NCBI GenBank assembly: GCA_051362555.1
Contig: CM120640.1
Location: 13,330,001-13,394,000 of the forward strand
Origin: Lingula anatina
Taxonomy: Eukaryota; Animalia; Brachiopoda
Direction of reading: 5' to 3'
DNA length: 64,000 nucleotides
Shown: piece by piece, positions 2,383 through 50,983 of the stretch
How positions within the stretch are numbered: position 1 is the first letter of the stretch
Layout of the letters: every line of letters starts with the position of its first letter
Position numbers and translations under genes: made by a program
Notes under the pieces: model-generated
What the model was told of the DNA's origin: nothing
Seen by the model: only the letters and a program-made list of their open reading frames with translations
Database searches by the model: none

Positions 2383-3871
2383 AAGCGAACGACAAAATAC
2401 ATGCATAAAATCCAATAAGAAATCACGCTTACTTAACCTGTCTTTTTGTTAAACAAAAGTTTAAAATAATTTATGGTGTGAGCAAATTTGCCGAATGGCG
2501 ACAGCTATAGCAACTGCGACGCCATAGACCGACAGAGATTATCAGAATATGTACTTATGTAAAGACCGATGGTGTTTCGCTTCTAATGCTATTAAATTAC
2601 ACAATTACACCCACGACGAGGATACCCTCTACCAGGACGACAGATTGATTTTACACAAGATATTCACAGATATGTCTTTAGATAAATGGATGGTCATTTG
2701 GTTCTCTGGCTTATGGAGAGGCCACATCGAGAGATTTTTTGTCAAAATTACGCGACAACAAAATTAATTTTGCGAAGCAAGAAAATCCTTTTAAGACATG
2801 CATCCTGATAATACATGTTGTACACTCCATGGAAGATGCACCGGTAGTGTATCAAGGAAGAAATCAGTAATACACTTCTCGCTGTTGACATTGGCTCACG
2901 TTAAACCGTCAATAAAATGAATGCAGACAACTGACGATATTACGGGTTGTTTCGGATTGACGTTTCTTTTCATCATTTTTGCATTCATTAAAAAACCCGA
3001 ATTCATTTTTAAGCCTGAAGCATTTTAATCTAACATTCCAATCCTCCAGGTTGTATTGTTACTGCTACAATTACAAAAATCAACAATTGATCGTTTTGCT
3101 GTGGTCACTAAAACATTTTCAAGTTTGTGTATTGAAAAATAAGCAACAGCGCCGTTTAAAATAAAAATATTGCCAGTATGGTTATATTAGTTATTCATGA
3201 CACTAAATGATAGTTGGCACAAAGTTTGAGTTCCTTAAAAATACATATATATTTGTTATTTGTTTACCATGACTTTAAATTATTTTAATTCAGAAATGGT
3301 TCATATACATACAATTCTTCAGCGTCGATGTCATTTGCTCCAGTGCCTCGCCGGCAATTTTAAAACTAATTTTTTTAATAATTTGCTTTCTGTCAACGTC
3401 TCTTTATTCCTAGAGTGGTCGGGATCTACAGTATATGGCAAAACACTGTGTCACTCATAACCTTGTCCTAATCCTTGTATCTTTAAATAGGCTGAATCAA
3501 CACACACACACACACATTACATTGACGATATGTTTTGTTATTTGCATCATTCAGTATTTACACACATGTAATTGCATATATTAAAGTGGATTTTATGCTG
3601 ATAGTTTACTGCAAGAAACGTACGTCTTCACGATACATGTACACATGTATGCACCATACAGTCCAGAAAAAAATTACAAGTTTAGTTGGTACATTAGTTG
3701 ATTTATGAAGAAATATATGGTAATAAGTACTTAAGTTTATATTAAAGGAATCCGGCGACACAAATTGCACAAAATGAGTAAAATATAAAAACTGGCATCA
3801 AGGTTCAGTCGCAGTGAAACTCCATTGAGCCCCTACCAAGCATTATGTTACTTAGCATTGTGTGATGTCTG

Positions 3872-5817
3872 CTATTGGTTGAAAGGAAAACAGCTCTGTA
3901 ATAAAGCGGTTTTTAGTGGCATTCTGTCGTCATAGAGTGTGGGAGCCTGCAGGATTATACCGAGAGTTCCAACCAAGCATGCTGTAGTGAAAATCCACAG
4001 AAAAAGCCGATCCAACACCATGGCTACATACCTCCAATCTTCTTTTACCTGAAATTATCGTAAAGACGTATGATTATAGTAACGCATTTCAAACCGAGCG
4101 TCGTTGACGTAAATGCACTATTTAAATCCATTTACTAAGCAGATGTAATAATATGTGGCTTGCTGGGTTTTAATATCACCGAATAAGACGCTAATTGATG
4201 GCTTAATGCTTCTCCTAATGGTGACGTCCGGATGAGTACAGACCTGGCTGTAATGATTTCATTTCTAATATTGATCTCACCTATCGCAATTAAACTTACC
4301 TCTGACAAAAAGTTATCACCTTTCAAATTTATAAATCATTCACAAAATTAATAACTCTGTGCACAAACAATTTTGTTTTTGCGAATAAAAACATACATTT
4401 TATTATTTTGTAATGCTATAGGCAGAGAAGAGACCTACTCTAAACTAAATAAAAAGAAGATATAAACAATTAATTCCCTTCCTATAGAAAAGCATAGGTT
4501 CAAGTAAAAAATTCATTTAAACAAGCGTAAGATAGAGGTTAAAAATACCAACCAAAAAGAACCGTAAAGCTGAAAGAAACTTGCGGGGAAAAGAAAACAA
4601 GCAAGCGCCATTCTTCATCCAGCTCCAGCCTTTGGGTGACTCACCATGTCTTCAACATCTTCGTTCTTTAGGTGGTCGGAGATAAATGTTACACCTTCCA
4701 ACGCTTTCTGGATGTGGACAGGATATTTTCGTTTCCTCAGTCCGGGGTTCCTTTCCTCCTGCCCAAGGAGCAAGATTTCTTCGTGACCCATATGATTTGC
4801 ATCGCAATTTTGTCGACTGTTTCCGAAAGCGTCTCGCATTTCCATTCCATTGCAAGCCCGCACCATCACCTTTGGCGTCTTTTCCCCTTCCGGCGTGGGT
4901 CGCCGCATCATCAGCAATCTCGGTAGAATCTGGAGGAAAACCTTCTTAACCCAAGGTGACATCACGTGGGTAGATGGACTTCGGAAGTGGACATTCAGCA
5001 CCACGACCGTCACGATAATTGACACAGATACCAGTATCATGGTGAAGAGCAGGTACTTGCCGATGAGGGGAACCACAATTGAAGTCGGCGGAATCAGGTC
5101 GGCCAATAGCAAGAAAAACACAGTGAGTGAAAGCAGAATGGAGATACACAAAGTAATCTTCTCGCCGCTGTCCGATGGGAGGTAGAACGTCAAAACAGTA
5201 AGGAAAGAAATAGCCACACAGGGGATTATCAGATTGACAGTGTAGAAAAGAGTTTTTCTACGCAAGGTTACGTTAAAAATAATAAAAGGATAAGGCTCAG
5301 GACAGCAAGTATAGTATTTTGCTTTGCGTCTGGCAGGAACACTTAGTAAGTCCCACTCGACACTGCGTGAATAGTCCTTCAGGTCAATGCCATAGCCGAT
5401 TTCATAGTCATCATTGTAATCATCTGGCTGGCATATATGCTTTAAATCCACTTGGAAACCATCGTATGTCCATGACCCAAATTGCATAATACAAGTTTGT
5501 TCATCAAAAGGGAAGAATTCCACGTTGATGGGACAGGCACTCTTGTAAATAGCGGGCGGCTCCCATTGCACCTTTCCTGTCGGATGAACGGTTGCTTTCG
5601 TCATTAAGGTGACCTCATAATTGCCATCTGCGCTGAAATTCGCAATGAACAACTGGGCTGATTACTCGTGTATTAACGGGGCGACCACGATCACTCTGTA
5701 TTCAATGCCTTGAAGTTTCGGGATTTGGGTAACATGACAACGGGTCACATGTAACAAAACTAAATAACTACATGTTTGTACACTAACATATGGGTTATAC
5801 ATCTATCTATCTATCTA

Positions 5818-5870
<53 letters not shown>

Positions 5871-8800
5871 TAGCTATGCGTTATGCCCAATAGGCATCAC
5901 ATACAAAGAGGATTGTGCGTTAGAATGACAAAGGAATATAAACTGTAAAGTAGAGAGTTTTGCTTCCAAACTATCTGGATAAACTTAACTCAATTATTCC
6001 AATCCTCTTTATGTGTTCAAAACACTTAAGATTTTCTCTTTCCAGTGCAGTGCAAACAAAACATGTATGCTACGAACAAGGGTAAAAGAAATGGGGAAAC
6101 ATGGCAACGAAGATAAAATTAAATGATGGGATCGTTTTTAATGACATAAATCATGCAACGTATCGGGGGAATGAAGACTGAAAAGTTTTGATTGATATCA
6201 GAGTTAATATATTCGAAAATTAGTATGTTTTACGACATGCATGGTCCATTAAAGCTGGTGCTAATGCTATACATTCAAAATGAAATAGAAATTTAGTTTT
6301 TTAGTGTTGCACCAGCTAGCTGAACTGAGAGATTACGTCATGTATCTCCATTCTGTTTCCTCTCCTTATAAGAAGATATTGATATTGCTGTCTTATGTGG
6401 CTGCATTCCAAGGGACCCGAGAAGACAAATTGCAGCAAAAAAATATTCAGGATGCTTTTGTACTTCTGAAAAATCTAAGAGTCTGAAATCAGAACTGAAA
6501 GCTGCCGTTAATTAGTGTCTATTTTAATGTAAAAATAAATTGTCTTGAGAAGATTTCATGACTAAGTACTAATTTCATGAAATGTATCTGGCATCATTAG
6601 TATATTTTCATATGTGATTTTGTAATGCAAAAATGATATTGCCACTGAGGATGATTTCAAAGGTCGAGCAACAGCTTTATCTTTTGTATTATCAATCCTA
6701 CCGGGGTATGACATATAGAAAATAATCGGCTGATTTTTGTTTCCTGACAAAAGCTAAATCTAGTTGAAGAGGGGAATGTCAGTAGATTGGACAAATACTT
6801 ATCGAAAACTAAAACTTCTGAAATGGCGAGCGATTTATGAAGCGACCTTTTAAAATATACCAGTGAAAGTACTACATTATAGACGTCGTGCGTCTTAGTT
6901 GAGCTGAGCAACGTCACTTACTTATTATACAACACTACATCCGGAAGCCAGATTCTGTCTGCAGGGACGTACAGGATATTCACCCCACCATAATCTTTAG
7001 GGTTCCACCGCAGTTTGTAGTCGTCCCATTCCTATGTGTTTAGAGAAACCAATTTGTAAGCATATCACATGAAATGCACACTTGTAAATTAAATTTTTGA
7101 CACATTATCTTATTCTTAAAGCTAAATGTGTAGATATTACTGGTCGTACGTAACAGCTATATATATATAACGGTTGAAAATTGCAGCTACAATTTATAGT
7201 GCTAAACGTAGATATGCGGAGGGCCTATTCGCTTTTACTCTGATGACATTCAATAGTGTGTTAAACTTTTTCTTTGTACAATTCAGAAAAGTTTAAGCAC
7301 AAGAGTGGGAGTCTTGAAAAGTGCAAGAATCTACCCTAACACAGTCCGTGGGCATGGGTTCAGGTTTCACATAGCTATGGGGAAAACTAATTATTTTTGC
7401 AAATCGAAACCTAACTCCTTGCTATTTTTCTTAGGACATTTTCCAGCCCGTACTTATTGATTTTCGTAATTAAATGATGACAAAATCCATAACAATCATA
7501 AATAAGTTGACGAAAACTCACACTTCAGCATCAAAAGCAAGGGTGTAAGTGTGTAAAAAACATTTGTAAATGTATATTCAAAAAACACATATAATTTATA
7601 TTGCCCTTTGTATGGCACTGGCAACAACGTCTGAAGCATCTGTTTGATCAGCTGGCAAGGTTGCAACAAGGCTCTATGTATACCAGCACAGAGGTTTAGT
7701 GCAACACTTCAAAATGGATTTTATTATAAACAGCAGATATCAAAGGTTTGAGGGCTTTCCGCGAATATGTTATCTATACTTTCATAACACAATGTGGTTT
7801 TAATTGTAGTTTAAGAACATTCTTTTCGGTAGTTTAAGTTTTAAAATAAAAACAAAATCATTTTGTGAGCGCTAGCTTACACTGCCGTAGTAGTCTAAAT
7901 TTACCGAAACATTTCTTTATACATTAGTGAATATATCCAGAAAACTTAATTCCAAACTAAAGTAATTTTTCAGAGCATGATTGACCAAAAAATTGCAATT
8001 TGCAATATATCATCACTTCCATTTTCGACAGGAATAGATTCTGAGAACTTGGGACATGCCAAATGCGCAAATCTCTCCAACAGGAAGGAGTCCGCCGACG
8101 TGCATTGTGTGGCTTGACCAGTGGAAATCGACAGCGAATTGCATTAGTTGTTGAAGCGGTCTCCTTGAAGACCTACTTACATGCATCAGCCACACGTTGG
8201 TAGTCATGATCTGGTTCTTCTCATCCTTAAGAATGAAGAAATCAGTGAGAAATAGGTTGTTGTTCAATTAATATACATGGCATGCAATTTACTTGAGATA
8301 AAACATGAAGAAAAACGCATCGAAAACGCTATCAAAATCCGTTCGATGGAGTGTTTCTAGACAATGATTCGCCCCTGAGCCTTAAAACGTATCATCTAAC
8401 ATGTAAAATGTTACTCGTGTAACCTAAGGAGAATACCAAATCATTGGACTTGATTAGTCTAATTTCGTGTCATATATTCTCCGTGCTCTTGGCTATAGAG
8501 AATTGATTCGAGTTATTGTTTAAAGGAGGCATTTGTGCACGAGCCGTTAATCGCCATTGGGTATATTCTAATTTAGAAATTTTATAAGAACTCAGCTGTA
8601 AGCTTTCTTATGCAATTGGGCAATAATTGGGCAATAATTCACCTAATAATTCACCATGTAACTCTTTCCAGCAGCTATGCCCTCGACTGGCATTTAATTT
8701 CCGTCGCTGATGACAATGTATATGCATTTTCTTTCGTAAGCGGTTTTCCAAAAATGAAATAAATTATTTCTTGAATATTAAACTAGACTGAGTATGAAGG

Positions 8801-19500: not shown

Positions 19501-22500
19501 AATTTCATGCACATACATTGTAACTCCTTATAATTCCTTTTAATAAAATTACCAAAGTTAAATAATCAATCGATCAGTCTTATATTTCAATGTTAAAGTG
19601 TATTTAATCAAGTATTACATGTCAAGGTTCACCTAAACGTAATTTGAATTTTAGTGTATGGCCTCTTTATTATAAAATAATACTAATGAATTTGAATGTT
19701 TGTGCGAAATCACAACGGCGACTTTGAAGTAAAGCCATTTTTAAAATGCTGAAATCATAAAAAAATACTTACCCTTTATCTGGCCCATAGAAAAATCAAA
19801 CATTTAGTTCACACAAACGAAATACAAAAACAAATTCTTCACTGCAAAACGCTACTTTGAAATAAAAAGCTGTTTGATCAACAAAATAAAAGGAAACCCG
19901 CAGTTAGCGTAAAATGAAAAGAAATAAGATTACAAATGTTCAGGGGAATATCTATTTAAACGATTACCGGTTGGTGCGATGAAATGATCCCTGAAGCACA
20001 AGGGTTATTATTTATACAGCAAATGCGCAAAAATAGATATAAAAAGAACACAATATTTCTCAACCTCGGTGTGGAGACTGAAATCAAATACATGTAGGAA
20101 AAACAGTAAATAAATTGTTATTTTCATACATGGATGTAAAAGGCACGCAGAAAAAACACTAGCACTGTTAGAGCTAGGTAGCTGCTACAGTATCACACGA
20201 AGCACGCGATGTATTGTTTTCCTTTTCTTTGAACTCACCATATCTTCAAGATCTTCGCTTTTCAAATGGTCGGAGATGAATGCAACCCCTTCCAGCGCCC
20301 TCCGGACCTCTGAAGAATACTTTCGGTTCTTCAAAACGGAATTTCTGTCATCTTGTCCACGAAGGAGACTTTCTTCTCGACTGTGGCGCCTGTCGCCGAA
20401 GATTTCCCGTACCTCTACACCATTGCAAGTTCGCACCATCACCTTTGGCGTCTTTTCCCCTTCCGGCGTGGGCCGCCGCATCATCAGCAATCTCGGTAGA
20501 ATCTGGAGGAAAACCTTCTTAACCCAAGGTGACATCACGTGCGTAGATGGACTTCGGAAGTGGACATTCAGCACCACGACCGTCACGATAATTGAAAGTG
20601 ACACCAAGATCATAGTGAAGAGCAGATACTTGCCGATGAGTGGAACAACTAGTGACGTTGGTGGAATCAGGTCGGCCAATAGCAAGAAAAACACAGTGAG
20701 TGAAAGCAGAATGGAGATACACAAAGTAATCTTCTCGCCGCTGTCTGATGGGAGGTAGAATGTCAAAACAGTAAGGAAAGAAATAGCCACACAGGGGATT
20801 ATCAGATTAACAGTGTAGAAAAGAGTTTTTCTACGCAGAGTGACATTAAAAGTAATAAAAGGGTGGGGCTCGGGTTTGGAATTGTAGTATTTTGCCTTTC
20901 GCTTGGCTGGAACGTCTAAGAGGTCCCATTCCACGCTGCGAGAGTAGTCTTTGAGGTCTATTCCGTACCCAGTGGAAAACTCTTCACGATGACCATCAAG
21001 CTCACATATGTGTTTTAAATCCACTTGCAGGCCATCGTATGTCCATGACCCAAACTTCATAGTGCAGGTCTGCTCATCAAATGGGAAAAATTCGACATTT
21101 ATTGGGCAAGCACTCTTGTATATAGCTGGTGGCTCCCATTCCACTCTCCCAGTTGGGTACACAGTGGCTTTCGTCAACAAAGTCACCTCATAATTTCCGT
21201 CCGCGCTGAAAATTGTAATTGACAACTAAATTGATAAATTTAAGAATTTTGTCATTCTATGGTTATAATCCCTAAGCTAGCTCTCAGCCCGCAAATAGAC
21301 AATAAAACATAAATGAAACAAACCCCATGCAGAAAGGGAGTTAGTGAACATAAAAAAGCAACAAATGATCGGTACCACAGGTACTAAGCTTACTACTAAA
21401 AAAACGTGAATTATGCATGCTGGAACATTAAAAAACAATTATTTTTTAAAGAATCCCATGGAAAATTTGAAGGATGTATCCCCTAAAATATAAAAGCAAC
21501 CACAGATGAAAAGATTAGCAGTCCATGCATCGTGGAAAGGTCAAGTGCTTTAATTCCCGTCTCCGCCAGGTTACATCATAGATATTTTTTTTCCAAGATG
21601 GTACACATTAATATGTATATATATCCTTTCTGACTACCTGGATATACCGCTAGGAAAGAGGTTTATCTAGATACAGCTGTAAGATGAATTTTCTTAAATT
21701 AGAGACTAAATAACATCAGTCAAACACGACGTTTCGGTCCACCACCCACGGAAATTAATCACGATTTTTTGCCAGAATACGACGCTCAGTAAACAGGATG
21801 CTACCGTAAACCCTCGGGAGTAGATCCTGGTCGCAGTGAGTGGGAGTTGGGGGGGGGGGGTCTAATAAAAAAAAGCATTTCGTACCAATCTTCGTCTTTC
21901 ACAAGTATCGAAGCATGTTTTTCAACTGACAGTATGGTTGCAGGTCTTAAGATGTTGGCTGATGCCCGTAGGAATGTCTGATTTAACAACGCATCCCAAA
22001 TGTTTAAATGTTCTTTTCGTACCCCTGTAATGGTTTTTGATCACCTGTGATTTATATACCACGATTGTCGTTGGATTGGAGTACGGTCTTTAAGTTTTAC
22101 GAGTTGTTGTCTCAAGGTGTTTAGAGCTGCTGATTCTGCGCGAAATCAACATTCACAAGGTCCAAAGGTGGCGGACAGAAATGTCGTGTTCGACTGATGT
22201 TATTTAGTCTCTAAGTTAAGAATAATTCTGTTTTATCAATTTACCGATTGTGACATAAATAAGGCAATGGTCATATAAGAACATTAAAGTTACGGAACAT
22301 ACATGCATTTGGTATACACCAGATACTGACATGCGTATGACGCACGGGTAAGGTGAACAGGCGTGACTCCTGTACGCACAAATCGTACTTAAGTTGTGTG
22401 CAATTACATGTATCATTGCTCATGTCAGCATGTGGGTTAGAAACAGGCAATAGTTAAAATTTCCACAAACTGTGTTTGTTTCAATCCAATCTTTCAATAC

Positions 22501-25500
22501 GTGCTGGCATATTGTAGTTTTAGTAAAGCAAGAAAGACAAATATGAGGTGCCATTCGTGCAGCTAAATAATAATAATAATGATGAACAGACAGATCGTGT
22601 TTTCCTATACACCAAAGTGTAATAGAATGCCCGAAAGAAGACCAAATGGTCAACATCTACATGTATATATTCTATGACGCTACATGATTGAGGCACACGT
22701 ATTCTCTCAGGTGGCGCATGCATGTAAGAAGTCAGCGAAGCTGAGCGATTACGTCGTATATCTCCACTCTGCTGATACTCTCAACATCCTTAGCAGTTGT
22801 TAATTATAATATTTACACTCCTACGATGAGATAAGATGTTACCCATGCATCAAAAGATGCATATATATACTAGTACATTTGTACAGGGGATATGAATGTT
22901 AAAGTAAGCCACTCCTGCATAAATCGCTGAAAAAGCGTAGAGCCTGAAACGAGAGCTTAAACCAGTTTATTAGTAGCAGTGATTCACACGCGCGCGCGCA
23001 CACACGCACACACACACACACAAACTTAATACGGATTTCAAACAACAGCACTTGATTAGCTCTGATTTCTGTGAACTCATACATGTACACAGTAATATAA
23101 ATCAAAGCAAATCTAAGCTGTTTATTGCGGTTCGTTTGCAGCTGCATGCTCCTCTTTAGATAGCTGCACACAACGTTAGTGATGTCATTGATTTGGAACA
23201 TCTAAATGTCGACCCCATATTTAATATTTGTATTTCTACATGTGGCAAATGTTACATTTCTAGTTATGATGCGGTTTGAATAAACCTATTTCAATAAATA
23301 AGTATAGGCATTCCATTCCAAAGTATCAAAATATCACTCATTACTTAAAACGGTTATTCAAAAGAAAAAATTAAACATAAGCGAAGTGGCGATGGATAGC
23401 CCCATTGTGTTTTATTTTTTTCATAACTTACTTATTATACAGCACCACGTCGGGTTTCCATAGTTGTTCTGCAGGAACATATAGGACATCAATATTGCCG
23501 TAATCTTTGGGATCCCAGCGTAAACTGAGGTCTTCCCACTCCTAAGGAACAATTAATGTGATTGCTATATTATGCATGTTCAAATGAGCGCAATTACTGC
23601 TAAGGTTTGATTAGACTGAAAGTAAAGTAAGAAGCTTTTGATGGACCTAGAGAGAGGAAACATTTTATAAAATTCATAGCTAAAATTCTGGTTCAAGCTC
23701 ACGGTCTCAAGGAGAAATATAAAACAACTCCTGACAGCAAATCCGAAGATTTCCTTTGTGTGTTATTCATTATAGCATTGTGAAATTTGTTACAATAATA
23801 TATGAAAAAATGTTGAGTTTAAGAGTAAATAGATAAGCCCTATAATTTGGAACAAAATATAGCATTTTAATCTAATTGTTATATCTAGGAAACTAAATAC
23901 TTAAAATATTTGTCACAAAAAATACCCTGTGCGTCCAGGGTGTCCTGACCCATTTCAAACCCATGAATCAGACCAGACCATGTAGTCAGTGCATTTATTT
24001 ATACAGTTATATTCATCATGCGATTTCACACACATACCAGTACGTTAGGTTGCGTATCCATATTATTACCCAATACAGATTGTCAGTTGCCAACTCCAGA
24101 ATAGATCACATTTGGCATAAGCAGACAGTTAAATGTATATTATTTTATTTTTGTAGGCGAGAAGATGTGAGATGATGAAGGTAAGGTAGCTAAGTACGGG
24201 GAGAAGAATGATTTGCAGCACGGAAAACAATGATACGCATTCTTGTGCCGGTGTTATGCTGGCCACGAAACGGGGCATTTAATGAAATACTGAAGTGATA
24301 ACCTTTGAATCTTGTTTCATATTAACATTTACTACTGGTTCCAATTTCAAACAATTGGAGCAATGCTTTGCCAGATGGAATCTTCCTTCAAATGAGTTCA
24401 ATATTTTTTTTTCTTTTTTCAAACGGTATGTGTTAAATGTGTGAATCCAATAAAACTTTCCTTTCTATTGTAATTTGAAAGCTGCACTTACGTGTGTAAG
24501 CCAAACATTTGTGGTCATAATCTGATTCTTCTCATCCTATAAAAGAAAAATGGTTCAATGCACAGACATTTACATGAAAGTCAATTTTTTACAACAGTTT
24601 GGCAGAAAGCAGTCCTTTTAAGCATCAACAAAATAATGATTTTATCAATTGCTTATATTTCTATTTATTTTACTACAACATGGTTTTCTTCAGATATCTA
24701 CAAACATATACATGTATGGTATTTGATATATAATAGGTAATGAAAAATCGTGATTGCAAAGACACCCAATTAAGAAAACGTGGAGCACCATTCTTCACAT
24801 TCATGTAAATAAAACTTATTATAAAATCATTGCCAACATGCTTGGACCAGATGCTGGACTAAATACACGGGTGAATTGAAACGGCACTCTCTTTGCACTG
24901 CGCCGCACTGCACTGCACTACACTGACCGCTATTCTCACACTTACCACATCGATAAGCTGTGTCAGTCGAAGGCCCAGTTTGACTGTGAGGTTGTTATTA
25001 TTGTCACTGACAGGACGAATCAGTTTATTGTAGCCTCTTTTTTCAAGTAAATCTCTGTAAAGTCTTTTGGCATCGACTGTCCCCTCGCATACTAAAATTA
25101 AGAGTTAATAGCTTGCAAACAATATTCACAAAAAAAGTAACATATATATAATCAATCATTTGCAGCAAAGAGACCGTCAAGTACCGCCATCTATCAGCAA
25201 AAATCCCCATATTTATGCAAATACATTCTGTTTGTCAGCGAGTTTTATCAAAAAAATGTTATCTATACAATACAACCAGCACGCACTGTAGTAACAGAAT
25301 AGCAGAGGATTTAATAATGGATTTTCAGAATCTCGGTGCCTAGAATTGCATCATTCAGCATAGCTGCAATATAGCAGCTCTCTCTTGTAAATCGATTGCA
25401 GTGTTTTTCAAAAGACCCTAACTTAATCATGTCAGTATCTATTAATGCATCGGTAAAAGAAGCACGTCGCTGAATACGTTACTATCTAAGTCCTTTCAAC

Positions 25501-34323: not shown

Positions 34324-35616
34324 TTAGGCTTTGGTAGGTCCTCGATCAGCCAGAATATGGGGCCCATCAAAAAAGATCCCAGTTGCACCTCCGGCAGTGA
34401 CGATCATGAAGATGAAAAATAGTAAACGGTCGATCACGTGAGCTATGTATTTCCAATCCTGAAGTACCTGAAAGAGTTATTCAGATAAATCAATACACGT
34501 GAGTATCTCTCAGCAAAAGGCTTTATCTCTATCCATTCCTTTCTTTTTGAAGACAAACACTTTTTTTAAATGACTTAAAAAGGGACATACAAGAAGCCTG
34601 ATTATAATTCACTTACCATGGCTGTTTCATCCACGTTTTGCAGGTGATCGGCTATGAAAGCGACTCTTTCAGCGGAACCGATGACGTCACTGCTGATACT
34701 CTTTATATGACCCATGCACTGCGGGCAACTCCCGTCGTGGACCTGAAGAACTCCATCCGCCCATTTGGGCGACAGATCAGAATTTCCAAAAAAGGCAAGA
34801 TTGATCATTTTTTGATACTTTTTTCTCCTCTTCAATCCGCGAATATACAGAGCGTCGTGGTTGGGTCGTCTTATCATCAGAAGTTTGGGGAGGTAGTTAA
34901 GAAAGACTACTCGCACCCAGCGGTTCATTCGATGTGCTTTAGGAGACCTATAATGCCAATTAATTAGGATGACTGTGTTGAAGACTGATATGATATTCAT
35001 CAAGAACGTAAAGAACAGAAACTCGGCGATAAGAGGGACTGCTTCTGAGTTTGGTGGCAGAAGCTTAGACACAAGAATAATGAAGAAAACCAGAGAAACG
35101 AGAACTGAAATTGTCAATGTTATTTTCTCCCCTGCTTCTGCGGGCAGATAGAAATTAAAGACACTCAAGGTGGCAATAAGCATACATGGAATAATCAAAT
35201 TCACGATGTAGAAGAGAGTTTTCCTTCTTATTTTCAAAGTGTAAATTACTCGTGTTGTCTTAGTATTTCCCTTTTCGATCTCTATAATTTTTCCCTCTCC
35301 GTCGACTATGCCCCAGATTCCACTCGGCATGTAGTCCATTAGGTCAGTATTACTGTAGTTCCAGAAGACGCTCCCGTCGGCGTAATAACTTATGTACCAA
35401 TCAAACCCAAACTCTTCACTATTGTATGTCCATGAGCCAAAATACATATCACAAATCTGCTCATCAAAGGGGAAATATTTGACATCCAGTTGACATGAAC
35501 TTTTGTAGATAGCGGGCGGAGCACGAAGAAGATAATTCGAGCCACCTGATGTGTCGGAAATGTTACTGTATATGATAACATTTGACTTGTAGTCCTCTGA
35601 GAATTTGCCGTCGGCG
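34324..35616 (-). CDS. Gene C 3' cassette 5 (distal, most diverged): exons 34617-35616 and 34324-34467
   Basis: Phase-2 acceptor ctag|C GCC GAC GGC; Cys-loop CQLDVKYFPFDEQIC; TM1-3; donor GTAAGT; terminal exon VLQDWKYIAHVIDRLL...DRGPTKA*. ORF intact. Confidence 0.9.
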
Positions 35617-37052: not shown

Positions 37053-38517
37053 CTACGTTATTGTTGCTTTACCTTTAAAACTCGCAAGGTAACGTTAAAT
37101 ATTATGATGTCACTCGAAGATCATCATAAATGTGAAGTTAAAAGGGTTAAAAACGTATTTGACAAGATAGTTGTTGGCAAAAAGGGTCGTTTTTAATGCA
37201 CGGTAGATATTGCTTTCAGTGAGATCAACACATAGCCCATGCAAAGCATGCATACTTAGCTAAAAACATAAATGCCACAACAAAGCCATCTTTAAACTCG
37301 CAAGATTACCACAAAAAGGTTTTCGTGTTTTTTATCACTTGTACCATCTCAATAATCTTTGTCCCAGTCTAAATTCAAATGACTTCCACGTGTAGTTTTA
37401 CAAAAAATAAATACTACCACAACATCTCTCTTCTTTCATGGAACTTTGTTGTTGAGAGTAATTGTTACTGGTTTCAGTTGGCGCTTTACTGCCGTAATCG
37501 CTACCTTCTCCTCTGAAACACGGTTCAGGTTCAAAGCTTAATGGTCAAAGAAAAAAGTTGTGCCCACCCCCTTTCAGCTGCTGCTCGATTTAGGTAAAGC
37601 ATCCTCTGTCTTACTGAGTCTATAACCGGTGTCTGTTTCGTTACGTGGGTAGATTAACTTCGCATATTTCTCCTTTTGAAGCACGTATATAGTCTCTGGA
37701 AAAACACAATCGAAGCTCGCACTCACACGGGTATGTTATGTATGAAAGGTTGGTGACCGAAAATGGAAATTAGTAATGATGGTCGATTGATATGTTATTG
37801 AGGACTAATATAAAGAGCTGAAAACGGGAAAATAACGGCTATGATATGAACATTGGTGGCGCCTCGTTAGACATACACGGTATGATACAATCAGGCAGAA
37901 TAATTTCCTCCGTTTAATTTTTATAGTGTTATGTTGTGTAGGCCCCCCTAGTGGTGGCGCCTCCTAGCGGAGGATACCAGGAGACGCTGGGCAGGTTGGG
38001 CAAGTAAGTTAATAAGTCAACTGTCGAGGTGTTTAAATGTAGACGAATTGAAGGTGATCAGCAGAATAAGTCCAGAAACCAAATTCCATCATGCAGATTT
38101 TGTCGTCGAATGGGAAATGGCGTATGTGGGCTCTTGTAAATGACCACATCAACCGGTAGCCAGGCAGTTCTTGTCGGCAGCGTTAAAATTAAAATGGAGA
38201 TAAGTGCGCTGCATATGTTGCATCCTTGAATTTAGTTTTGTGGGGAAAACTTTAAAAATTATTGATTTTATTGATTTTCATAAAAGGATTATTATGAAGT
38301 GAAGTCGAGTATGGAGTCAACACCACTAGCAGACCAAGATTGCCAGTATCTTATGCTTTCTCATGGAGCGTTAAGGTCGAGCACAGAAAACTTATCACCG
38401 TCTTGGACGAACTCACGCTTCACCATTATCGCCGAAAGCAAACTAAAATGATGACTGCGCTTATTTCTACAGCTTTTCTGTATACGTCAAATGATAGCCG
38501 GATGCCATTCTTAATTA

Positions 38518-40520: not shown

Positions 40521-41954
40521 TTATGAAGTTAACGCTTCTTGCCTATGAAAAATATGCGGAACATTAAAAAACAATCCACATGTTCCGCCAATGGTCACTA
40601 TGAAAAATAAATAAAGCAGCAAACGGTCCACCACCAAAGCAAAGTACTTCCAATCTTGAACTTCCTGAAATTATAGAAAGAAAAATCCTATTATGTGTAA
40701 TCGACATGTAATACCGAAACCTAATGAAATTTTATTACGCACCGTGCATTCCTACATACTTACATGTATGTACTGTGTAGTATGCATGTCTAGGGCTAGG
40801 CGCACGGTTACAGAGTTGAGTTCTTCGCTATCGCTATCTCATAAGCCATAGATGATCAGAAAAAAAAAGGAAAAGAGAAAGGACACACAGAGAAGGGTGG
40901 AGATAATATAAAGAGAGAAGGAAGCAGATACAAACTCACATTCTGGGTATCGTCGCTTTCCTTCAAGTGTCTAGCAATGAATGCAACGTCATTGGCTGCA
41001 TCCATCAACCTTTTTGGTACATTTCGCTTACTGCTCTCACGGCCATCTTTCGGATTTTGATTGCTGGCCGTCTTGTATATTTGCTCTGCCTTTGTAGATT
41101 TTGGTGCTTTTAAGCTAGTGCCCGTGACTTCTGTTGATAATGAGGACTCTTTCAATGTTGCCATCCACCTTTCCTCGGATGTTAATTGTTTCTCTGCTGG
41201 ACAGCCTCGTCTGTATTGGTTTTCGTGATTCGGTCGCTTAACAAGGAGCAGTCGTGGTAAGTAGTTCAGAAATACTACTCTCACCCACTTTGGCATACTG
41301 TGAGAATTTGGGGATCGAAAATGCCAGTTTATAGTCATTACAGCCAGAAGAACAGATACAATGTTCATGATGAAAGTAAACATGAGGAATTTGACTATTA
41401 GTGGGACCGATAACGATGTCGGAGGTAATAACTTTGAAATAAGTAAGATGAACACTACTAATGCGATAAGAATAGAAATGCTGAGGGCAACTTTCTCGCA
41501 GGCTTCACTTGGCAGGTAAAAAGTTGAAACGCTCAAAAAGGAAATCAATATACAAGGTATGATCAAATTAACAATGTAAAACAAAGTTTTTCTTCGAATC
41601 CGTATGTAATAAATAACTCGCGTCTCTGCAGGTTTGTCATCTTTGGCGGCTCGATACACAATGGCCCCCGGGCCTACTACAATATCCCAAGTACCACTAG
41701 GCATGTAGTCGGCCAGGTCTACTGTACTGTAATTCTTAAATGGTTTTTCTTGATAATACCAGTCGAAACCAACTTGTTCCCCAGTGTACGTCCAAGAGGC
41801 GAAATGCATTTCACATTCTTGCTCATCAAAAGGGAAATACTTGACATCGATTTCACATGAACTTTTGAAGATAGCTGGCGGGACGTGTAACATTGTTCCG
41901 TCTTCGTATACGACTACATTGGACCGGTAATCTGTTTGATATTTACCATCAGCA
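40521..41954 (-). CDS. Gene C 3' cassette 4: exons 40940-41954 and 40521-40664
   Basis: Phase-2 acceptor ctag|T GCT GAT GGT; Cys-loop [15 protein letters not shown]; TM1-3; donor GTGAGT; terminal exon EVQDWKYFALVVDRL...FHRQEALTS*. ORF intact. Confidence 0.9.
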
Positions 41955-49312: not shown

Positions 49313-50983
49313 TCACTTAGAATCACTTCCTATGTCAAATATCGTTTTGGCATTGAAGAAAATCCCCACTGTTCCACCGATGTTAACAAGCAAAAAGATA
49401 TAGAGTAGTAGCCGATCAATCACCATGGCAACGTATTTCCAGTCTTTGAGAACCTGCAAAATCAATAGAAAACATAGATTAGCTGTCAAATAAACCTGAT
49501 AAACCTTGGTGTATGTCCCAGCGGCCAGTGGTATTCTGAGAAAATATCCTCTGTTCGGACCAACCAGGTCAAACCAATATGATATAGGATGATCTAAGGT
49601 GGGTCTCGATCATGCCTCAAGTGATCAAGTTTCGACAATATTTATCAAATTCAAATTTAAGAATAAACATATTGCGTCACCTTATTAAATTCGTGTTTTT
49701 GGATGCATTATGTGAGATTGATGTATGGCCATAACGATCACTTGATTCGTTATACACCTATACGGCACGATATTGTAATAATAGACTTCCAATCTTGAAA
49801 TAAACTTATACTGGTCACGCCTTAGATTACCATTTTGGCATATAGAAAAATGGTTTTAAAAATCAATATTTAAGATGGTTTCATCACAATTTTTGTAACT
49901 AGTATTACGTCTGCTACATGCAGTAGGCCTGTATGATAAAAAATGAACATCTTGGATGCAGACCTTTAATTTGATCGTGTGCGTGTGTGTGTGTATGTGT
50001 GTGTGTGTGTGTGTTTTCAGTATTCTAGCACACTTACGTAAGAATGGTCCACTCGGTCCCGGACATGTTGAGATATAAAGTCTGTATTTTCAATAGCACC
50101 CAGCACTTCTCTTTTTGTGTCGGATCCACTTCTATCCTGGTATGCACTCTCAGTTTCTCTGCGGTCTGAGGAACTAGTCAATTTAATATCACGAATGTTT
50201 CTCTCCTTTTGTTTTCTCTTTTCTTCTCTCTTTTTGAGACCTCTCATATATTGGCCGTAATGATCTGGTCTTTTCATAAGGAGTAAACGAGGCAAATAAT
50301 TCAAAAACAATATTCTTACCCACATATTCATTCTGTGGGATCTCGGCGACCGATAGTGCCAATTGATAATAATCACAGTCGTGAAGATGGAAACGATGTT
50401 CATGATGAAGGTGAACAGTAAAAATTTGGCAATAAGAGGTATTGAGGATGATGTTGGTGGAAGCATCTTGGAGATCAGAAGTATGAAAACAACCAGAGAG
50501 ATAAGTAGAGAGACGCACAGCGTTATCTTCTCACCGGCGTCCGTTGGTAAGAAAAACGTGCAAACACTAAGAAAAGAGATCAATACGCATGGAATAATCA
50601 AATTCACTGTATAAAATAACGTTTTACGCTTGATTCGCACTGTATAAATGGCTCTTGTAAGAGTTTGCTTGCCATCTTGAGCTGGAATATGAATAATTTC
50701 TCCCGGTCCCTTAATAATATCCCACGTCCCGCTGGGCATGTAGTCACTTAGATCTAGCGTGCTGTAAACTTGACCCTCGCTTTCATACCAATGGAATCCA
50801 AGTTGCTCTCCACTGAATGTCCACGAGCCAAGTGTCATTGGGCAGTCCTGTTCATCGAATGGAAAATACTGTACGTCCATGTGACAGGTGCTCTTGTAAA
50901 TGGCAGGGGGAACATGCAACAAAGTCCCGTCGTAATATATGACCACATTGGACTTGTATGAGACCTGGTAATTACCGTCAGCG
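49313..50983 (-). CDS. Gene C 3' cassette 2: exons 50038-50983 and 49313-49453
   Basis: Phase-2 acceptor ctag|C GCT GAC GGT; Cys-loop [15 protein letters not shown]; TM1-3; donor GTAAGT; terminal exon VLKDWKYVAMVIDRLLL...IGSDSK*. ORF intact. Confidence 0.9.
49977..50014. repeat. (GT)n microsatellite next to the cassette 2 donor
   Basis: Direct reading. Confidence 0.9.

Follow-up and report, generated by a model that had tools for sequence, protein, structure and literature searches.

A conserved intron-exon duplex over the pore codons of two Lingula anatina nicotinic receptor genes, a likely guide for partial threonine-to-alanine RNA editing

A cluster of nicotinic acetylcholine receptor (nAChR) genes lies on the minus strand of a 64,000-nucleotide (nt) stretch of the genome of the brachiopod Lingula anatina (the whole stretch is called the window below). 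In one of these genes, gene A, an element in intron 4 pairs with the codons of the second transmembrane segment (TM2) in exon 5, and a homologous element occupies the equivalent place in intron 4 of its paralog, gene B. We consider it likely that the element is an editing-complementary sequence for ADARs (adenosine deaminases with RNA as their substrate), directing partial recoding of the threonine at pore position 2' to alanine (T2'A). Editing of A and B would probably occur in neurons and in a fraction of the transcripts. The features concerned are:

6327..6355, minus strand: core of the editing-complementary candidate in intron 4 of gene A, whose predicted pairing reaches over 6323-6370
5134..5163, minus strand: TM2 codons E-1' to L8' in exon 5 of gene A, the target of the element; pairing is predicted over 5119-5166
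5154, minus strand: first base of the gene A T2' codon (residue 279 of protein P0001), predicted from relatives to be the edited adenosine, Thr to Ala
22743..22771, minus strand: gene B intron-4 element, core 25/29 identical to that of A; predicted pairing extends to 22730-22780
20705..20736, minus strand: TM2 target in exon 5 of gene B, with the same sequence as the gene A target
20727, minus strand: first base of the gene B T2' codon, paired with 22751; predicted edited adenosine, by inference

An earlier sequence-only reading of the window had described the gene A duplex but missed the gene B element. Its coordinates and anatomy of the helix proved right: 6327-6355 forms 28 pairs with 5163-5134, including a perfect Watson-Crick run of 15 bp at 6341-6355, G.U pairs at 6339 and 6340, a U x C mismatch (6337/5152) and a bulged A in the K0' codon (5159/5160). 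The full predicted pairing, of 6323-6370 with 5119-5166, comprises 42 pairs at -48.2 kcal/mol. This helix is present in the minimum-energy fold of the 2.4-kb pre-mRNA from exon 4 to exon 5, and the gene B helix likewise in the fold of its own pre-mRNA. The target lies about 470 nt inside constitutive exon 5, and the element lies in the upstream intron at a distance of 1.2 kb (A) or 2.0 kb (B). A search for a second duplex at matching positions in A and B, involving other parts of exon 5, found none.

A duplex scan and shuffled controls bore the pairing out. When the TM2 target was scanned against 4264 minus-strand windows of 45 nt, the four best partners were the gene A element and its gene B counterpart (energies of -50.2 to -37.5), followed by the next partner at -33.6 (mean -12.9, SD 4.2). 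An ungapped complementarity score centred on the 2' adenosine reached 50.5 in gene A against a shuffle mean of 21.2, and 44.5 in gene B against a shuffle mean near 21; each was reached by none of 200 shuffles.

The elements have been retained since an old duplication: in the part of A and B that encodes the ligand-binding domain, 27 of 39 four-fold sites differ and synonymous sites are near saturation. Across the four A/B intron pairs only two blocks align at E < 0.05, both in intron 4. The best match is the element itself (78% over 49 nt, E 8e-6); 150-190 nt upstream of it comes the second block, at 73% over 51 nt with an E of 4e-4. Block shuffles equalled the score of neither block (0/300 and 0/500), with a margin of only one point. 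The identity of 25/29 in the element core has a binomial p of 5e-5 even at an expected identity of 50%. Three of the four core differences exchange Watson-Crick for G.U pairs, so that pairing is kept, and the fourth falls at the K0' loop; the U x C mismatch and the one-base gap are common to both duplexes. Such similarity of the cores despite near-saturated synonymous sites, together with differences that keep the pair in three of four cases, indicates that the TM2 duplex is under selection.

ADARs favour a 5' U or A, and a 5' G or C is disfavoured. In the target, a 5' U precedes the adenosines at 5154 (T2') and 5145 (I5'). The adenosine at 5159 has a 5' A but sits at the bulge, those of E-1', the first of K0' and I1' have a 5' G, and that of I7' has a 5' C. 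The adenosine at 5154 pairs with 6335 and belongs to a 6-bp helix that is bounded on one side by the K0' bulge and on the other by the U x C mismatch.

In the mechanism that we propose, the element would pair with exon 5, as computed, after the exon has been transcribed and, presumably, before intron 4 is removed. The predicted duplex consists of a helix of 18-20 bp, the U x C mismatch, the 6-bp helix and the one-base K0' loop, and its imperfections are alike in A and B. An ADAR would then deaminate the T2' adenosine, with its 5' U, within the short helix, as the relatives suggest. By established chemistry, the resulting inosine would be read as G after splicing and would give Ala at 2'. The loss of a hydroxyl at the 2' ring would alter conductance, selectivity or block.

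Support for T2' as the edited codon came from a survey of 347 homologues and cluster members, whose signs are at protein level and not from reads. Among 518 pairs that were at least 97% identical over at least 200 residues, Thr/Ala at 2' was the only point difference in TM2, and it occurred in three groups; three other differing pairs involve P0227 or P0228, models that lose the frame after GEK. The sequence-only reading had named several possible recodings. T2'A alone gained support, and E-1'G, K0'R/E, I1'V, I5'V and I7'V were absent in all 518 pairs; I5' shares the 5' U context of T2' but lacks outside support.

The first group is a Logan cluster 99.5% identical to the pharaoh cuttlefish genome model P0046, which has Thr. 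Among its spliced forms of 553 residues, 109 of 113 contigs have Ala (by distinct sequence, 4 of 7), as against none of 15 contigs among its exon read-through forms (by distinct sequence, 0 of 3). Ala at 2' is present on both backgrounds of an independent V/G variant. Of two related forms, the spliced P0129 has Ala and the read-through P0136 has Thr. This cuttlefish site may already be listed in cephalopod editome tables. The second group consists of the abalone protein P0213, which we infer to be a cDNA and which has Ala, against Thr in six genome models of other Haliotis species. The third group is a pair of proteins, P0177 and P0171, that differ only in having Ala and Thr, respectively. P0177 starts with an apparent read-through of intron 4, continues through the last exon and has Ala at 2'; if it derives from RNA, this would fit editing while the upstream intron was still attached.

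The closest published parallel is nAChRbeta2 of Drosophila. Table S4 of PMC4965139 gives a T>A edit at 3R:20337378 and a silent L>L edit 5 nt on, at 3R:20337373. Table 1 of PMC8505678 assigns the edits of this gene to TM2, and in the supplement of PMC6369821 its editing ranges over 2-24% across fly neuron classes. The arthropod proteins compared have a single Thr-Leu dipeptide in their beta2-type TM2, at 2'-3', which would place the fly T>A site at 2'. We take T278A to be the label of this site, although it was found in no paper. Lingula A and B fall in the same broad protostome clade of alpha1-4/beta2-type subunits and appear to share the 2' Thr. The T2'A swap predicted in Lingula is likely the one reported in the fly receptor. 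Unlike the fly gene, the Lingula L3' codon has no A at its third position, which leaves the silent L>L site without an equivalent. The literature examined described no guide element for the fly site.

Intronic guidance of this kind is familiar from the Q/R site of GluA2, an ADAR substrate whose intronic editing-complementary sequence is located downstream. As in GluA2, exon and intron of the Lingula genes would pair before splicing, in an imperfect duplex of about 30 bp that covers a pore codon of a ligand-gated channel. In contrast to GluA2, the Lingula element lies upstream, and an editing level near 100% is unlikely in the Lingula run X4 described below. The element is likely an additional case of the known ADAR guide type and would work like the GluA2 guide, from an upstream-intron position.

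Two further systems offer partial parallels. For exon 5 of the insect nAChR alpha6 gene, the authors of PMC1919356 invoke duplexes with flanking intron sequence, in the downstream intron. This likewise ties nAChR recoding to an intron duplex; it differs in subunit group, in the use of the downstream intron and in its sites, none of which is the 2' codon of TM2, a segment that the paper never mentions. In coleoid cephalopods, acetylcholine receptor activity is enriched among recoded genes according to the supplement of PMC4384741. In these lophotrochozoans, too, nAChR transcripts are recoded (PMC4384741 and PMC9068888), and the T2'A pattern of the cuttlefish homologue was seen here. In contrast to coleoids, Lingula is no known heavy recoder, and a dedicated guide conserved in its introns suggests that one particular site has been selected. 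L. anatina has four ADAR-like gene models according to table 1 of PMC6651903.

We found no literature on the element or on nAChR editing in Lingula in a search that excluded subscription papers and some editome tables, and no matching paper on the function of the 2' ring. The accessible part of bioRxiv 10.1101/2020.01.19.911685 mentions neither Lingula nor acetylcholine receptors, and that of PMC6896357 neither Lingula nor editing. The supplements of PMC12634045, PMC5365144, PMC5319793 and PMC9068888 gave no match, those of PMC5365144 and PMC5319793 being covered in part only.

RNA reads were compared with positions 3850-5800 for four of nine runs labelled as Lingula (X1, X2, X4 and X7), a difference being listed when it was present in at least three reads per run. 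X1 and X2 contained no reads, whereas depth over 5104-5169 was about 21 in X4 and about 8 in X7. The comparison of RNA with genome over 5134-5163, which the sequence-only reading had suggested as a check, listed no A>G difference in the two runs with reads. This is a weak test: the reads come without a stated tissue or matched DNA, and from animals whose sequence departs from that of the window in several places. At position 5173, moreover, the gene B letter is present in 25 of 25 reads in X4 and in 9 of 9 in X7, so that gene A was likely hardly tested. If 10% of the transcripts were edited, at most two edited reads would be found among 21 with a probability of 0.65; for 20% and 30% editing this probability falls to 0.18 and 0.027. 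Editing of 30% or more in X4 is hence unlikely, while levels of 2-24% as in fly neurons are compatible with the reads. Majority recoding of gene B in the X4 sample is excluded; low or neuron-restricted editing is compatible with it.

T>C differences listed at 5029, 5401, 5443, 5467 and 5566 were rejected as editing and read as differences between paralogs or populations, because they are at the 100% level, are accompanied by many other types of change and lie outside the duplex. Reads were also present in gene A introns, in intron 4 (5632-5800) for X7 and in intron 5 (4048-4245) for X4, at a depth like that of the gene A exon; they may be unspliced RNA or DNA carry-over.

Similar elements were sought at 80 metagenome loci. 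Of these, 22 lacked a usable TM2 match and 18 offered too little non-coding sequence (under 500 nt), which left 40 for the test. Scores were reached by one or two of 200 shuffles at L030, L034 and L038, and by three of 200 at L073, which has Ser at 2'. L030 and L038 were rejected as guides, their pairing partners lying inside the coding frame. At L034, the codons from G-2' to T2' find a partner in non-coding sequence downstream of TM2 (L034:1308-1325 with L034:646-664), forming a helix of 15-19 bp with a partner 665 nt downstream (1/200 shuffles). It is a possible independent editing guide, and with 40 loci tested it counts as a lead only.

Several observations weigh against T2'A editing guided by the element. 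The duplex contains no A:C mismatch opposite an exonic A, and it shows no two-sided compensatory change; since the exon strand is identical in A and B, no two-sided covariation could be seen. The reads tell mildly against it as well, with no difference of any kind listed at 5090-5172 in X4 and X7. Only one of the 40 testable metagenome loci has a credible similar element, and there it lies downstream; most loci include little flanking intron, so blanks say little. The cuttlefish contrast, counted by distinct sequences (4/7 vs 0/3), gives a Fisher p of 0.2, the contigs being non-independent, and cephalopods edit widely in any case. The abalone P0213 is compared with other Haliotis species only and lacks a genome control of the same species. 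Thr is found in all oyster, scallop, mussel, limpet, Aplysia, Biomphalaria, octopus, spider and Daphnia members with TM2, a set that includes spliced Logan forms and in which majority editing is excluded only where the member is a transcript. On balance, the idea of an editing structure was strengthened by the conservation of the element in gene B and by the signs of T2'A in relatives, but no editing was seen in Lingula itself.

The strongest rival, which we regard as unlikely, accepts the duplex as real and selected but gives it a role in splicing or RNA fate instead of recoding. The duplex would loop the 3' splice site of intron 4 and the first half of exon 5, and might thereby slow intron removal, mask cryptic sites or work with the second conserved block. 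The lack of editing in the Lingula reads suits this explanation, as does the second block itself, which has branch-point-like and 3'-splice-site-like motifs upstream of the element in both genes and was equalled in none of 500 shuffles, by that one-point margin. So do the X7 reads in intron 4 at about exon depth, but these may be DNA, and the alternative exon-4 isoforms of mollusc orthologues, but no relic alternative exon 4 was found in introns 3-4 of A and B with a weak profile of only three peptides. Against a splicing role, the target lies deep in a constitutive exon and covers a codon that varies in an A>G manner in relatives. A splicing role and editing can coexist. The mollusc orthologues concerned have two alternative versions of exon 4 (P0024/P0121, P0027/P0203, P0029/P0208, P0060/P0300, P0069/P0216 and P0014/P0346).

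It is less probable still that the element is a functionless relic, either an ancestral guide or an old inverted micro-duplication, kept alike by gene conversion. The A and B exons show patches of synonymous near-identity from TM1 to past TM3 (4850-5272 and the gene B equivalent) against saturation elsewhere. Codons for the same residue differ between A and B in 0 of 27 cases in TM2, 11 of 21 in the interval from TM2 to the post-TM3 block, 3 of 51 in the post-TM3 block and 52 of 93 in the ligand-binding part. The homogenised post-TM3 block has no known duplex. Homogenisation of this patchy kind looks like conversion, so exon identity itself is no evidence for the duplex, and gene conversion has likely acted on the membrane part of the A and B exons. 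This pattern and the absence of editing from the reads both speak for a relic. However, the intron flanks fail to align, which would confine the conversion tract to about 50 nt, and conversion leaves unexplained both the differences that keep the pairing and the match of each element to its present exon. Chance complementarity is very improbable: although pyrimidine-rich TM2 codons do pair with purine-rich sequence, as with the coding-frame partners at L030 and L038, it is refuted by the window scan, the shuffles of both genes and the A/B intron alignment, with the element at equal intron positions in two old paralogs.

If the element does guide T2'A editing, a brachiopod guide has been kept through an old duplication and is aimed at a pore residue apparently recoded in fly and cuttlefish receptors. 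Recoding sites common to several phyla are rare, and to our knowledge guide structures from animals other than insects, vertebrates and cephalopods are few. Editing of T2' in Lingula, fly and cuttlefish alike seems somewhat more probable than otherwise, and likelier than that the site was inherited rather than convergent. We are doubtful that T2'A in flies, cuttlefish, abalone and brachiopods descends from the protostome ancestor while its guides turn over in sequence and position; if it did, it would be one of the oldest recoding sites of animals. The prediction comes down to one base per gene, 5154 and 20727, and offers a direct test of whether the recoding site is ancient or repeatedly reinvented. 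The case also illustrates that a single genome window can be enough to predict an editing site, where paralogs have conserved the pairing of intron and exon.

The exons and introns that contain the duplexes are:

4645..5632, minus strand: gene A exon 5, with Cys-loop, YTCC loop C, TM1-TM3 and intracellular loop
5633..6921, minus strand: gene A intron 4 (GT-AG), 5' of the target exon; element about 570 nt past the 5' splice site
20239..21205, minus strand: gene B exon 5 (P0002), without the loop C vicinal cysteines
21206..23431, minus strand: gene B intron 4; element about 660 nt past the 5' splice site

Gene A encodes a nicotinic alpha subunit: its exon 5 is 100% identical to P0001, which bears the name acetylcholine receptor subunit alpha-like 1 of L. 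anatina. P0001 has the YTCC loop C, the Cys-loop, GEK before TM2 and the Pfam domains PF02931 and PF02932, as expected of an alpha subunit. Gene A keeps YTCC, whereas both vicinal cysteines are missing from loop C of P0002 (about 20890-20870), and gene B is read from this as a non-alpha subunit derived from an alpha gene. A quick tree groups A and B, with a support of 99, as sisters duplicated within Lingula and places them in a protostome group with cephalopod, gastropod and arthropod alpha and beta2-type subunits, the deeper nodes being open. Further Lingula paralogs are P0015, P0030 and P0263.

A third gene of the cluster, gene C (63915-33500, minus strand), appears to have one set of 5' exons (about 63915, 60590 and 56190) and, after them, five exon-5 cassettes (54320, 50985, 45939, 41962 and 35618). 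A broken cassette lies near 38128, and at least the first four of the five lead into a last exon and a stop of their own. This arrangement suggests a beta-type subunit with alternative 3' halves. The sequence-only reading had quoted V1'A2', V5' and V7' of cassettes 4, 2 and 5 as genomically encoded counterparts of edited residues. These residues are present, V1'A2' at 41500, V5' at 50535 and V7' at 35132, but they make a weak argument for editing: cassette 1 groups with an insect beta1 subunit on a long branch in the quick tree, no element was found at any of the five cassettes (18 to 40 of 40 shuffles matched the scores), and A2' is present in 14 of 120 homologues, several of them genome models.

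The second block shared by the two introns is located as follows:

6466..6516, minus strand: second shared intron-4 block of gene A, 73% over 51 nt against B; role unexplained
22927..22974, minus strand: second shared intron-4 block of gene B

It contains a branch-point-like motif and repeated 3'-splice-site-like motifs, the use of which in splicing would lead to an early stop. The gene B block can pair with intron 3 near 23730 (-34.5 kcal/mol), and that of gene A has no partner at the matching place. Intron 4 of gene B also holds, at 21691-22222, an element of about 530 nt resembling a miniature inverted-repeat transposable element, with inverted ends of 56 nt that are 91% alike; its hairpin is nested within the loop of the TM2 duplex.

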